From IMG/VR virus record IMGVR_UViG_3300027740_000003, positions 288,001 through 352,000 of that record: a stretch of DNA of 64,000 nucleotides; one strand, 5' to 3'. A program made the translations under genes and the position numbers. The notes under the pieces were generated by a model. The model made no database searches and was not told the origin of the DNA. It worked only from the letters and a program-made list of their open reading frames with translations. Within the stretch, counting starts at the first letter, position 1. The number at the start of each line of letters is the position of its first letter. Shown piece by piece: positions 25,405 through 38,108 of this stretch. Source of the DNA: a virus. Taxonomy: Duplodnaviria; Caudoviricetes.

Positions 25405-25517
25405 ATTACTCCAATGAACTGCCCCCACTTAAAAGTGGGACTTCCTATTGATATAATCTCAAGGCATTTTGATTCGGGTTGTTCCAACCCGAATTGGATT
25501 ATTTCTAATCCTTTTAT
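25399..25517 (-). ncRNA. Orphan TnpB omegaRNA / IS200-IS605 right-end copy with no tnpB gene
   Basis: The 103-nt segment 25415-25517 aligns with the tnpB 3' end (34955-35056): shared ATAAAAGGATTAGA, ATTCGG..GAA..CCGAAT stem, GCCTTGAGATTATATCAA and terminal AGTTCA. It also has a perfect CCCACT-TTTA-AGTGGG hairpin. Confidence 0.75.
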
Positions 25518-25539
25518 TATGTCCTATAATGCCCTGTGT

Positions 25540-25662
25540 TTACTTGTCTTTCTTCTCCTGAGCTTCTTTAATTTTCTGACGAGTTTCTTCATCATCGACA
25601 GGTTTAACATTTTCTGGCAATACGTCTATTACTTCTACTTTTCCACGTTTGATTATTGGCAT
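25540..25662 (-). CDS. 40-aa small protein below the ORF-track cutoff
   Basis: AAGGAG RBS then MPIIKRGKVEVIDVLPENVKPVDDEETRQKIKEAQEKKDK; fills the gap in the operon. Confidence 0.6.
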   Translation of the reverse strand: MPIIKRGKVEVIDVLPENVKPVDDEETRQKIKEAQEKKDK

Positions 25663-33110: not shown

Positions 33111-34955
33111 TTATACCGGTGGAGCAGGTGGACCTCCTGCTGGCGGACCGCCTAAACCTCCACCCCCTCCCATCGGTGGAGGAGACGTTAATCCTCCCCC
33201 TAATCCACCACCAAGGCCTCCTCCGCCTCCTAGTCCCATATCCATTCCACCACCTAATCCCCCAGCTCCACCAGGTGGTTGAACAGCTTGATCATATGCT
33301 GTCTCTCCAGGCAACGGACTATCTATAATCTCCTGAATCTCATCATCATCACCAATGCTTCGGAGATCATTAAGCCCCATCCTTTGAAGGGCCTCCATCT
33401 CCTTGGCCTGTATAATTAACTCTATATTCTCTCTTCGAATATGCCTTACCTCTTCCTCATACTCTAGTCCAAGAGATTTATACATTGTCTGCAACGAAAC
33501 TTTCCTAGGTTCCTGTTGAATTAAATTATATAAATTCTGAATATAATCACCCATATCAAATAATGACATGTGATTCCACTCAACATCAGGAACAATAAGC
33601 CTTTTCTGTCCATCAACAATATCATAGAAATCATTCATTTTAGATATTGGAGCAAATATTTTTCTGCGCAACCATGTGCTTAACATGTTTCTGAATTGCA
33701 TATATCTCTGTCTTAATACGTCTAAAGATACCCCTCCATTCGCATACGTCACGTCTGCCCCACCATCCATAATAACCTGTGGAACCATCAGTCCTATATA
33801 AATCAACTTAATAAGCCGTTCAATATCACCAGAAATATCATAAATGCCAGCACCAAAACCAACAGGCTCAACTGATACCGCATCATGTGTAAATATCTTA
33901 AAATCCTTAGAATAACTTGCCTCTTCGAATACTTGACGCCATGGTTCAAGATCTGCCGGTGTTGGTTTGTAATTTTCTCCACCACCACCTATCTTTATTA
34001 ATGTGAGCGGGTTGATAAACTGTGAAGCCTGTACATATTTTGACTCATAAAGCTGGTCAAAAAGCATTAAAGCTCTAAAACAACTTACTGGCAATCCGGT
34101 TCCTCTTACCTCATAAGGAGCTATCCTCCTAGCAATATGAGATACATAAAAATTGCTTAAAGGAATATTTTCTCCTTTTCTAACATGTTCTATAATGCTA
34201 GGGTCGATCTGTTGTCTCTGATATAAATCAGACGGCCTATTGCCAGTTATTATCTTCCTTAAATTCTCATCCGGCCTTAAAGACATAACCGGTTCACCAG
34301 CAATTACATTGCGCCTAACATCTATAAAATCAGGATTCTGAATTGTTATTCTACTCCATTTTGCAGTATTTTGATCTAATTCTGCATAAGGAAATGCTTC
34401 ACCTAGAGTCCAATATTCTTGTGCTATTTGCGTACATACATTCATTAAATCTATTTCATCAATCATATTTTCAAAAAATGCATTAACTTTAGAATTTTTA
34501 CATTTTATATTTAATTTAGATATAGGATAGGTAGAATGTAAAGAAATAGCATTTTGAACAATAGGATTTAATGCAAAAAAACTTCTACACCAAGCATTAA
34601 TTGTTGCTTTATCTCTTGGCAGGTTTAGGTTGCTAAGCAGCCAAAGAGGAGAATAAACCTCGGGCATCATTCTATCAGTGCCACCAGAACCACGATATCC
34701 AGATCCAGTTCCTGAATTTGAATCAAATACTCCCGCAGTTTTTACCCTAGATCCAAGAACTGTTCCTAATGTTGTTTTATTAAACTCATCTGTAAAATTT
34801 CTACCTACAGGATCCCCACGAAACTTTCCCGACTCAATTTCTTCCTCTAAAACTTCTCTACGATATTGAGATACAGAACGCGCCATCCTCTCTGTAGCCT
34901 GTGGAGATACTCCTTTCTTCTTTGCTAAATATTGCTCAGAATTTGTTTTGATCAT
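33111..34955 (-). CDS. Portal protein
   Basis: Position between terminase and head genes; INAWCRSFFALNPIVQNAISLH, QEYWTLGEAFPY and YEVRGTGL resemble portal motifs of large phages; G/P-rich C-terminal tail. Confidence 0.7.
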   Translation of the reverse strand: MIKTNSEQYLAKKKGVSPQATERMARSVSQYRREVLEEEIESGKFRGDPVGRNFTDEFNKTTLGTVLGSRVKTAGVFDSNSGTGSGYRGSGGTDRMMPEVYSPLWLLSNLNLPRDKATINAWCRSFFALNPIVQNAISLHSTYPISKLNIKCKNSKVNAFFENMIDEIDLMNVCTQIAQEYWTLGEAFPYAELDQNTAKWSRITIQNPDFIDVRRNVIAGEPVMSLRPDENLRKIITGNRPSDLYQRQQIDPSIIEHVRKGENIPLSNFYVSHIARRIAPYEVRGTGLPVSCFRALMLFDQLYESKYVQASQFINPLTLIKIGGGGENYKPTPADLEPWRQVFEEASYSKDFKIFTHDAVSVEPVGFGAGIYDISGDIERLIKLIYIGLMVPQVIMDGGADVTYANGGVSLDVLRQRYMQFRNMLSTWLRRKIFAPISKMNDFYDIVDGQKRLIVPDVEWNHMSLFDMGDYIQNLYNLIQQEPRKVSLQTMYKSLGLEYEEEVRHIRRENIELIIQAKEMEALQRMGLNDLRSIGDDDEIQEIIDSPLPGETAYDQAVQPPGGAGGLGGGMDMGLGGGGGLGGGLGGGLTSPPPMGGGGGLGGPPAGGPPAPPV

Positions 34956-35056
34956 GAACTATCCTTTGTTTTAAAACATAGATTACCTTTTGATATAATC
35001 TCAAGGCTTTTTAATTCGGACAATTCCTGACCGAATACTGTCTCTAATCCTTTTAT
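34939..35056 (-). ncRNA. Cognate omegaRNA overlapping the tnpB 3' end; guide would be the first bases of the portal gene
   Basis: Established TnpB architecture; ATTCGG/CCGAAT stem; homology to the copy at 25415-25517 fixes the scaffold end at AGTTCA. Confidence 0.7.
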
Positions 35057-36130
35057 CAATATATTCTTAGCTGCGTTTATATCTCTATCATGCAATGTTC
35101 CACATGTGGAACATTGCCATTCCCTATCAGAAAGAGATAACTCTTGATGAATCTTTCCACAAACATGACATCTCTTTGAACTTGGTTCAAATCGATTGAT
35201 TTGAACCAATGTTCTTCCATACCATTTTGCTTTATATTTCATCATTGCAACAAATTTGCTCCAAGAAACATCTCCGATGTTTCTTGACATTACTGAAGGA
35301 GATTTCTCCAAAAGAGATTTTACATTAAGATCTTCTAAACATATTACGTGGTTATTGTTAATAATATTAGAAGATAATTTATGTAAGAAATCATCTCTTT
35401 TATTGCAAATCTTTTCATGTAATAAAGCAATTCTTAGTTTTAGTTTGTTATAATTATTTGATCCTTTTATTTTGTTAGATAATAATTGTTGTAATCTTTC
35501 TAAATGTTTTAGTTCTTTATTATAGAATTTAGGATTATCTATTTTAGAACCATCAGAAAAAGTAGTAAAAGTTTTTATACCTAAATCTATTCCTATATAA
35601 TTTGGACCTAAAGTCTTTTCAGGAAGTTTATTTCCGTCCTCAACTAGAATAGAAATGAAATATTTATCAGTAGGTGTTTTAGAGACAGTACAAGTTTTAA
35701 TTTTTCCCTCAAATCTTCTATCAATTCTTGCTGCAATATTTTTAATTTTTGGCAATTTAATAATGTCTTTTGAGAAATTTACTTTAACTCCTTGAGGAAT
35801 TGAATAAGATTGTTTTAAATATTTATTTTTAAATCTAGGGAAAGAAGTTCTTTTCTCAAAAAATCCTTTATAAGCCCAACACATATGTCCAACCTCTTGT
35901 TGAAGAGCTTGCGATGAAACATCATATAACCAACTATATTCATTTTTAAGATCTTTTAAAAATCCAGAAATAATATCAAAACATGATAGGTTAATTTTAT
36001 TTTTATTATAAGTTTCTCGCTTGGCTTCTAAAGTTTTATTATAAACAAATCTACAACAACCAAAAGTCTTCGCAAAGAAAACTTTTTGTTCTTTAGTAGG
36101 ATAAAGTCTATATTTATAAGATTTTAACAT
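34952..36130 (-). CDS. tnpB: TnpB RNA-guided endonuclease (IS200/IS605 family, IS1341-like)
   Basis: KSYKYRLYPTKEQ...FGCCRFVYN N-terminus; RuvC residues intact (IGIDLG, CLEDL, DRDINAAKNI); CxxC...CxxC zinc ribbon. Confidence 0.93.
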   Translation of the reverse strand: MLKSYKYRLYPTKEQKVFFAKTFGCCRFVYNKTLEAKRETYNKNKINLSCFDIISGFLKDLKNEYSWLYDVSSQALQQEVGHMCWAYKGFFEKRTSFPRFKNKYLKQSYSIPQGVKVNFSKDIIKLPKIKNIAARIDRRFEGKIKTCTVSKTPTDKYFISILVEDGNKLPEKTLGPNYIGIDLGIKTFTTFSDGSKIDNPKFYNKELKHLERLQQLLSNKIKGSNNYNKLKLRIALLHEKICNKRDDFLHKLSSNIINNNHVICLEDLNVKSLLEKSPSVMSRNIGDVSWSKFVAMMKYKAKWYGRTLVQINRFEPSSKRCHVCGKIHQELSLSDREWQCSTCGTLHDRDINAAKNILIKGLETVFGQELSELKSLEIISKGNLCFKTKDSS

Positions 36131-36204
36131 TTTTTAAATTTTTACCAATTTATAGAAATATACAAAAATATTAATTATATAAATTTTGCACTTGGGGTTG
36201 ATCA
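34955..36204 (-). mobile_element. tnpB-only IS200/IS605-type element inserted at the portal start codon
   Basis: Bounded by two copies of ATGATCAA on the minus strand (36198-36205 and 34948-34955); ends in TAGTTCA; no tnpA in the window. Confidence 0.7.
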
Positions 36205-36233
36205 TAATTATATGCCTCAATATCTATATAACA

Positions 36234-38108
36234 TCACCTGAACGGACAATAACCGACAATTGCAGGAATTTTCTCCGGCCCTCTCTTGTCAAATGGTCCT
36301 TTCTTATTATCAGAAAATCCTCCTGATACCCAGAATTTATATGCCAAATAAGCATTAACCAAAGCCATCATGCCGTCATTTGGCGTAGATCCTTTAATAA
36401 ATCTCCTAACAGGCTCGTTTACCACGTTAAATGTAGTTTTTACTTCCATTGAAGCACAATGGTCTATTAACCAAGATATCTTGTCATATCCAGAATTTTC
36501 CCCTCTAGCTCCACCCAATGGAAATCTTATTAACCCACGTTTCATTACATTAAATACTTCTTCAATATAATATTCTCTTTCTGCTTTTATTAAATGAGGA
36601 AATGAATCTGTATATAATTTAGCTTTACCAGTTAATTTCCCTGCAAGTTCACAACCAAGGAACCTGTCTCCATATTCTCTCTGCAAATCTTCTGTAAGTT
36701 CATGGGCAAATCCAATATCTCCTATGGCCTGGACTATACTGTATTTCCTCATAACTTCATGAATATAATTTCTTTTATATTCATTGTCATTTTTTTTAAC
36801 AATTCCAGCATAATCAATAACTAATCTTCCAGGACCGTCTTCTCTTAAAACAACACAAGTAGAATAAGATTGACCACCTGCTCTTCTTGCCTCTTCTTTC
36901 CCAACCTGATCTTCATCAGATCTCTTTCCCCAGTCAAATCCGGCAAATACTTTTGCTTCCTCAGACCTTGGTATAGTTGCCCGCATACATCTCTTCGAAT
37001 CTCCACATTTTTCAATAATTTCTTCTTTTGAAATCGGACCCATATCACCAGTATAAAATTCTCCCAAAACCTCATTCATATAAGCCCGCTCCGTGTTAAC
37101 AAGGCTTTTTTCCGGTTTTTCATCATCCATTGCTTCTCTGGTAAATCGAGGATTATAAAGCTGATTAATGTGATACCCAATCATAGAAACGTTAGGATCG
37201 TCATCGTCTCTGGTTCCTATCCATTTGCCCCTTTCTGCTGCTTCTCTTTTATCTTGAATATGATTGCATTCTGGACACTGAACCATAAATCCATAAATCC
37301 ATATCTTTTCCCAATCATTGCTTCCTGGTGTATAAAGTGGAAAATGTTTGCCACAATTTTCACAACCAAGATAATAATATTTCTGACTAGACTCTGTCCA
37401 CATTTTATAATAATGAGAGCTTTTGCTTCTTGGGGTACCAAAATAAACCTGTACTCCTTTTGTTGGCTTTCCATATTGAGCCTGAGTACACATCTTATTT
37501 ATATTCGCAATGGCAGTCTGCATGATTGACTGAATCTCATCAAAAAGAATAATATCAACGGTACCACCCATCAACCTGTCCCCATCAATTCCAGTAGACT
37601 CAATACGAACGAAATTACCACCTTCAAATTGTTTATACTGCAACGAATTATTTGTTGGAGACGTCTTGTCTAATTTGGATTCAATAATAGAAATAGACCT
37701 AGATCCTTTGGTTAAACCAGAAGGAATAGATCCTTTAATCATTGAATTGAATTTGGTTTTTGCATATAAATGAACGTGAACCAATGTTGGGAACAAATGA
37801 ATAACTCTTACTGGTGGCTTTCCTCCCCGGCCAAATATACCAGATGCCATAAAATAAAGTTCAAGTGCCGCGGCCATGGTTGTTGCTCCAACCTGCCGTC
37901 CCTTGACCAATATAATAGGTTTTGAATTAGCGCTTAGGGCACTTATGCCTATCTGCCTATAGATGTCTGCAAATGGCTTGTAGCCGTTCCCATGCACTCT
38001 GAATGGAAATCCGTCTAATGTAAGGTTCTGTTCACAGAACATAACAGGGTCTACACTTGAAATCCCTGATTTTAATTGTTCGAATACATTTATTTCTTTT
38101 TGTTGCAT
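36234..38108 (-). CDS. terL: Terminase large subunit
   Basis: KGRQVGATT Walker A, LFDEIQ Walker B, FGTP motif III, CxxC...CxxC, and AGFDWG nuclease Asp. Confidence 0.9.
   Translation of the reverse strand: MQQKEINVFEQLKSGISSVDPVMFCEQNLTLDGFPFRVHGNGYKPFADIYRQIGISALSANSKPIILVKGRQVGATTMAAALELYFMASGIFGRGGKPPVRVIHLFPTLVHVHLYAKTKFNSMIKGSIPSGLTKGSRSISIIESKLDKTSPTNNSLQYKQFEGGNFVRIESTGIDGDRLMGGTVDIILFDEIQSIMQTAIANINKMCTQAQYGKPTKGVQVYFGTPRSKSSHYYKMWTESSQKYYYLGCENCGKHFPLYTPGSNDWEKIWIYGFMVQCPECNHIQDKREAAERGKWIGTRDDDDPNVSMIGYHINQLYNPRFTREAMDDEKPEKSLVNTERAYMNEVLGEFYTGDMGPISKEEIIEKCGDSKRCMRATIPRSEEAKVFAGFDWGKRSDEDQVGKEEARRAGGQSYSTCVVLREDGPGRLVIDYAGIVKKNDNEYKRNYIHEVMRKYSIVQAIGDIGFAHELTEDLQREYGDRFLGCELAGKLTGKAKLYTDSFPHLIKAEREYYIEEVFNVMKRGLIRFPLGGARGENSGYDKISWLIDHCASMEVKTTFNVVNEPVRRFIKGSTPNDGMMALVNAYLAYKFWVSGGFSDNKKGPFDKRGPEKIPAIVGYCPFR

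Follow-up and report, generated by a model that had tools for sequence, protein, structure and literature searches.

The stretch of DNA considered here, the window, comprises 64,000 nucleotides (nt) of the virus record IMGVR_UViG_3300027740_000003 (C1:288001-352000 of 435 kb) and has a guanine-cytosine (GC) content of 35%. Within it, an element encoding the RNA-guided nuclease TnpB occupies the start codon of the portal protein gene. Positions are those of the window and lie on the minus strand unless stated otherwise. The terminase large subunit gene terL (36234..38108) is upstream, followed by tnpB (34952..36130; 392 amino acids, aa) and the portal gene (33111..34955; 614 aa), whose N-terminus is the same as in the related locus L001 (L-numbers label the related loci that were compared). 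The whole locus is covered by a 21-kb single contig with a depth of 25 from a soil run, possibly the source sample. The joint of an empty allele was not found in the DNA contigs of that run, which cannot show absence.

The insertion of tnpB on the portal start codon is real. The 79 related portal loci all lack tnpB, with no filled portal allele among them, and the spacing in the closest empty-site relatives by portal identity, L001 (92%) and L002 (82%), fits the reconstructed empty site. Specifically, 27-30 nt lead from the terL stop to the portal ...TTATG in these relatives and 28 nt in the reconstruction. The comparison also bears out the first-pass annotation, which had placed tnpB at the portal start codon and held that the element displaced the portal's native upstream signals. 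The original Shine-Dalgarno-like sequence of the portal, GAGG (36215..36218; -5.6 kcal/mol), is where the empty sites have it and is now stranded upstream of the element. In seven other loci (L008, L009, L011, L013, L019, L058 and L074), the terL-portal interval holds 1.2-2.6 kb of non-tnpB sequence, indicating that it tolerates or attracts insertions.

The element, its ends and its guide RNA

The element extends from 36203 to 34954 (1,250 bp), contains tnpB as its one long open reading frame (ORF), and is a tnpB-only (IS1341-type) member of the IS200/IS605 elements. Related elements have left ends that come after TTAT and right ends that finish AGTTCA(C/T), as do two orphan scaffold copies in the same genome, described below. 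Family right termini are TTCAC in 85 cases, TTCAT in 17 and TTCAA in 11, the last count including three misparsed internal AGTTCAA matches. The window element finishes AGTTCAT, and its right end, GATAGTTCAT (34954..34963), contributes a terminal AT that, together with the G beside it, restores the portal ATG. Judged by these family ends, the first two bases of today's portal ATG belong to the element. At the other side, the transposon-associated motif (TAM) TTAT (36204..36207) has as its last two bases the AT of the original portal ATG. Two observations support this TAM: identical left ends follow TTAT at differing sites (L082/L164; L088/L163/L333), and TTAT is conserved in the empty alleles of L001 and L002.

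While the right end retains a subterminal hairpin, albeit a weak one (-2.9 kcal/mol), the left end has decayed into an AT-rich leader of 18% GC (36131..36197), with a GTGCAA remnant at 36186-36191. It folds with -6.0 kcal/mol compared with -13 to -25 in relatives (DNA folds computed with RNA parameters as a proxy), and the GC-rich subterminal hairpin of the family is lost. Terminal inverted repeats were sought at the element ends and none was found. No match to PF01797 (TnpA) occurs anywhere in the genome, including the element, and tnpB is present once. Because two family features fail, the left-end hairpin and the absence of a target duplication, this copy is classified as a derivative variant rather than a canonical mobile member, the loss of the hairpin being read as decay; the variant is taken to work like an IS605-type homing element.

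Both the protein and its RNA are ordinary for TnpB and omegaRNA, and TnpB is an ordinary family member with the inferred TAM TTAT. The domains PF12323, PF01385 and PF07282, corresponding to a helix-turn-helix, RuvC and zinc ribbon, score above cut-off, and the RuvC triad D182/E266/D350 and the zinc finger C321/324/340/343 are intact. The triad rules out an identity as TldR, the nuclease-dead TnpB repressor. The closest TnpB relative is 61% identical; searches found no nearer one and no sister copy of the exact element. The omegaRNA scaffold core (34954..35035) consists of three stem-loops overlapping the 3' end of tnpB, its 5' boundary possibly being ~20 nt farther upstream. Compensatory changes occur at 13 of 23 consensus pairs, and the fold has a z of -3.9. 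An Rfam search matched the RNA to no family, and the exact scaffold pattern had 0 matches in viral contigs, while a degenerate pattern succeeded. By analogy with the ISDra2 reRNA (PMC8612924), a 16-nt guide is predicted at 34938..34953, which is the start of the portal coding sequence. Behind TTAT, the L001 empty allele matches this predicted guide at 15 of 16 positions, with a synonymous mismatch at position 4. The full target is absent from the phage's own genome.

The best-characterized counterpart is ISDra2 TnpB with its reRNA, or omegaRNA (PDB 8bf8, 8exa, 8h1j; Karvelis 2021, PMC8612924). The two proteins agree in the order of their domains, in the RuvC triad and in the zinc finger (E=4e-63), and both systems have a structured RNA that overlaps the tnpB 3' end and the right end and takes the flank as its guide. 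In contrast, ISDra2 uses TTGAT as its TAM, and the window element has no tnpA, a shorter scaffold (~80-100 nt), no left-end hairpin and, as described below, a seed copy at its left junction.

The two orphan omegaRNA/right-end copies are protein-free and near-identical. Copy C (25414..25520) is upstream of the head-protease gene, ending 8 nt before the likely ATG, and copy B lies outside the window (G000 C1:394939-395061, plus strand). In each, the scaffold is fused to an initial CATAATA, a motif that relatives carry just upstream of tnpB. The single TnpB could draw additional guides from these copies. The related phages L119, L125, L156 and L158 contain similar orphans. The counterpart sites in L334 and L324 are too diverged to fix the boundaries of copy C; in L334 (the 82% relative), its place is taken by an ORF (L334:1860-2150) whose start, by eye, resembles an intein/Hint-type domain. 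A small conserved ORF of ~40 aa (25523-25660) lies between a 210-aa gene and the head protease and is also present in L334, L324 and L325; it is too short for the cut-off of the ORF list. The tnpA-less IS605-type (IS1341-type) elements of Geobacillus stearothermophilus and their palindrome-associated transposable elements (PATEs) likewise combine tnpB-only copies with protein-free omegaRNA mini-elements in one genome (Meers et al., 10.1101/2023.03.14.532601). In that organism, cleavage of the empty site by TnpB leads to copy-back of the element, which for the window element is only proposed. The window element differs in residing in a jumbo phage without tnpA, on an essential start codon, and with a TAM-adjacent duplication.

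Two further arrangements were seen among the compared loci. To judge from its appearance, the right flank of L088 (L088:3664-3700) consists of a right end in inverted orientation and then part of a left end, and so of a second nested remnant. In L173, L168 and L178, 36-nt direct repeats with unique spacers, resembling a CRISPR array, lie directly upstream of tnpB, at about 1030-1200.

A seed copy at the left junction and its recurrence

By definition, IS200/IS605 elements do not duplicate their target. The octamer ATGATCAA is nonetheless present at both junctions of the window element, at 36198-36205 and 34948-34955, and the first-pass annotation was right to regard this as anomalous for the family. 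The octamer itself is not rare, with 6 occurrences in the window versus 6.7 expected; the non-random feature is its position at both junctions. However, the repeat is not the 8-bp target duplication that had been described, because it has two sources. Two of its eight bases are explained by the AT common to the target motif TTAT and the right end TTCAT. Comparison with the empty sites thus confirmed the insertion and moved its boundaries, since 2 of the 8 nt are element-derived. The remaining 6 nt, GATCAA (36198..36203), stand directly after the TAM and before the left end. They are a true copy of the guide seed, 6 nt long and not 7 as first thought. Nine of the first 12 nt match the guide, and from the sequence the copy may be the decayed remnant of one of ~12 nt. 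It carries this lineage's C where L001 and L002 have T. Published TnpA integration makes no target duplication (10.1101/2023.03.14.532601), and the literature searched, outside which most subscription papers lay, holds no description of a TAM-plus-seed duplication.

Similar copies recur in other elements. They were defined as TTA(T/C) followed by at least 6 guide bases no more than 250 nt upstream of tnpB, with the expectation taken from swapped guides. The phage-type set includes some metagenome contigs judged phage-like by gene content. With the window excluded, a copy is present in 4 of 57 distinct phage-type elements compared with 0.09 expected (binomial p=2e-6). The copies are 10 nt long in L095/L097 and L188 and 6 nt in L166 and L338, as in the window; L338 came from a later search than the other carriers. 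The signal weakens as background rises, to p=0.006 with a 1,200-nt search window and p=0.02 with a looser TAM. The carrier TnpBs are 46-58% identical to each other, apart from one pair at 76% (L338/L188), which indicates that the seed copies had several independent origins. All five carriers, the window included, have a canonical right junction, and in L095 the joint passes through a 3-nt in-register microhomology.

The copies are associated with insertions on start codons. Three elements occupy the start codon of a long ORF, namely that of the portal in the window, an AAA-type ATPase in L166 and an NAD-dependent epimerase in L338. A 6-nt copy occurs in all three, compared with a copy in 2 of 55 others (Fisher p=3e-4, window included). 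The L338 element (L338:748-1966) is a twin of the window element, with a TTAT/G target, a TTCAT/G end, a decayed left end, a weak terminal hairpin and an ATGA overlap, despite a TnpB only ~49% identical. The seed copy also keeps the TGA of the upstream gene in L166 and L338 and its last codons in L188. The L188 element (L188:1092-2379) lies within the last codons of a gene, and on its left side 10 exact and ~15 partly matching bases give a replacement C-terminus. No such benefit to the upstream gene is visible in the window, where the terL stop is 28 nt earlier.

Translation signals around tnpB and the portal

The portal ORF remains intact because the TTCAT end rebuilds its ATG and the right end carries a replacement Shine-Dalgarno-like site, AAGGA (34962..34966), 6 nt before it. 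AAGGA is the commonest 5-mer upstream of the genome's ORFs (49 of 297 crude ORFs). It pairs with a duplex energy of -5.4 kcal/mol, compared with -3.9 for the native signal in L001 and L002, and it sits in the terminal hairpin of -2.9 kcal/mol. That this hairpin is weak through selection to expose the portal signal was considered and downgraded, because hairpins of comparable AT content occur in L329 and L188, where no start codon is involved. On the upstream side, a 23-codon ORF (36134..36205) runs from the old portal Shine-Dalgarno sequence and ATG, in frame with tnpB, and ends 3 nt before the tnpB ATG. Its putative translation could hand ribosomes to tnpB, whose own Shine-Dalgarno sequence is weak (-2.8 kcal/mol). 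A sigma-70 promoter scan was near chance (14 versus 8.8 +/- 3.6), and no use was made of it.

The tnpB ORF reads through the right end, and its TGA overlaps the portal ATG as ATGA, as the first-pass annotation stated. Among 58 phage-type elements, tnpB passes the right end in four and ends at +2, giving ATGA, in two, the window element and L338. Both are start-codon insertions, which hints at selection for coupling. Neighbouring genes in this genome also meet most often at ATGA (92 of 417 close pairs in crude gene calls).

TnpB trims its own mRNA. From the geometry of ISDra2 (PMC8612924), the omegaRNA would include the portal Shine-Dalgarno sequence, its AUG and ~16 coding bases, so processing of a transcript into guide RNA would cost a portal mRNA. 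Elsewhere in the same genome, a second portal-like match (G000 C1:131969-132682) shows 30% identity over portal residues 114-358.

Origin and persistence of the element

The explanation that accounts best for these observations, to which a probability of roughly 0.55 is assigned, is that a tnpB-only element arrived with the help of TnpA in trans, persisted by homing, and acquired the seed copy as a repair scar. The element occupies the family target TTAT/G, here at the portal start codon, as its position, its TAM and the rebuilt ATG attest. From what is known of the family, its first arrival would have used TnpA supplied in trans. The left-end hairpin has since been lost in a genome without tnpA, while an intact nuclease and a compensated omegaRNA were kept. 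Because of this decay and the lack of tnpA, the element now probably spreads only by homing. It most likely persists by RNA-guided homing, its nuclease cutting the portal alleles of co-infecting relatives that lack the element and repair then copying the element in. Precedents exist in the cutting of empty sites by TnpB, which drives copy-back (10.1101/2023.03.14.532601), and in TnpB-driven, TnpA-independent spread between plasmid alleles (10.1101/2025.02.20.638934 as summarized in PMC13565253). The latter, described as a TnpB gene drive or non-restorative IS605 homing, resembles the present proposal in its TnpA-independent spread to an empty homologous allele. It concerns plasmids, however, and that paper's text mentions no phage, junctions or duplications.

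Homing could also leave the scar. ISDra2 TnpB cuts 15-21 nt from the TAM, with the non-target-strand cut at ~15 nt (PMC8612924). If the window TnpB cuts likewise, the TAM-side broken end would retain the first target bases. Incomplete trimming and joining into the left end of the element would then yield TAM, seed and left end in series, i.e., the 6-nt scar. Consistent with this, the five copy lengths are variable (6, 6, 6, 10 and 10 nt) and all below 15 nt, and the L095 joint shows microhomology. The old Shine-Dalgarno sequence and ATG would now feed the 23-codon leader, and the portal may in addition be coupled through the ATGA overlap, of which it has no obvious need.

Several alternatives, not all mutually exclusive, bear on the duplication. 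It is hardly credible that the 6-nt match arose by chance. ATGATCAA does occur at chance frequency in the window and the case was picked because of the match, but the excess among other elements, 4 versus 0.09 expected, makes coincidence unlikely for the class, though less clearly so for this single copy. Equally improbable, and already largely refuted, is insertion by a DDE-type transposase with a true 8-bp target duplication. The insert is indeed flanked by a literal 8-bp direct repeat, but terminal inverted repeats are absent, the ends are of the IS605 type and conserved across >100 relatives without duplication, and the duplication length varies from 6 to 10 nt. A less remote yet improbable route is one-ended TnpA integration at the first insertion: once the right end was attached to the target, extension from the TAM 3'-OH would have copied a few target bases before the left end was joined. 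The canonical right junctions would fit, and the left-end core seems displaced rather than replaced in the window and in L166. In L095, however, the first 7 left-end bases are replaced, published TnpA integration lacks target duplication (10.1101/2023.03.14.532601), and 0 of 64 cellular elements show a copy, though many carry upstream tnpA remnants. It is quite improbable that the copy was instead kept by selection as a site that TnpB binds but does not cut, thereby repressing its own transcription. TAM plus a ~6-nt seed defines binding for the TnpB-derived TldR repressors (10.1101/2023.11.30.569447), and the copies lie 54-130 nt upstream of tnpB. This position follows simply from the location of the left end, however, five chance TAM plus 6-7-nt sites for the window guide exist elsewhere in the genome, a roadblock would cut portal mRNA too, and >90% of elements have no copy.

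A different proposal, made in the first-pass annotation, is that tnpB is wired into the late operon such that portal synthesis needs its translation; this would make the element addictive. Beyond the rare ATGA overlap, found in 2 of 58 homologs and in both cases at a start codon, the window element lacks the stop that is otherwise conserved in the terminal loop, and the region is 1 nt longer. There is nevertheless reason to doubt obligate coupling, since the portal receives from the right end a strong AAGGA of its own, set in a weak hairpin. Weak hairpins are common to other elements with decayed left ends (L329, L188 and L338), tnpB stops 26 nt earlier in the start-codon insertion L166, and L338 may owe its read-through to descent from the L188 lineage (76% identical). 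The two observations named beforehand as speaking against coupling, different boundaries and an independent initiation signal, were both obtained at least in part, the boundaries differing in 2 of 8 nt. Dependence of portal synthesis on tnpB translation is thus possible but not supported, and is judged unlikely.

Some points also weigh against homing and a repair scar. The activity, expression and repair steps are predictions from sequence. The seed mismatch at position 4 may make the closest empty allele resist cutting. The three start-codon copies share a length of exactly 6 nt, whereas random trimming would be expected to vary more, and since the copies in L166, L338 and L188 preserve an upstream stop or C-terminus, selection too shapes which scars are seen. 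The contrast between phage and cellular elements is weak (Fisher p=0.046), the TAMs and left ends of the latter being uncurated.

A broader generalization can be put forward only tentatively and is rather unlikely to hold in full. In large phages, TnpB elements without access to a transposase may have been fixed recurrently on gene starts as pure RNA-guided homing cassettes. Their anatomy would be convergent, with a TTAT/G target, a TTCAT end rebuilding the ATG, a 6-nt seed copy, a decayed left end and ATGA read-through. The seed copy would then be both a datable homing footprint and a self-binding site, and expression of the host gene would be coupled to tnpB translation, in competition with omegaRNA maturation from the same transcript. 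IStrons and phage intron-borne and free-standing homing endonucleases likewise combine harmless residence in an essential locus with a homing nuclease (PMC13565253). The window element has no intron, and its harmlessness comes instead from an ATG and ribosome-binding site rebuilt in the DNA.

TnpB homing between phages has been proposed, with no demonstration in the literature searched. A recurrent TAM-plus-seed duplication would be a sequence footprint of TnpB-driven homing, and past homing events would be countable in public phage genomes. Overall, the locus is a compact natural test of a selfish nuclease occupying an essential start codon, and also of the conflict between a guide RNA and the portal protein on one RNA.

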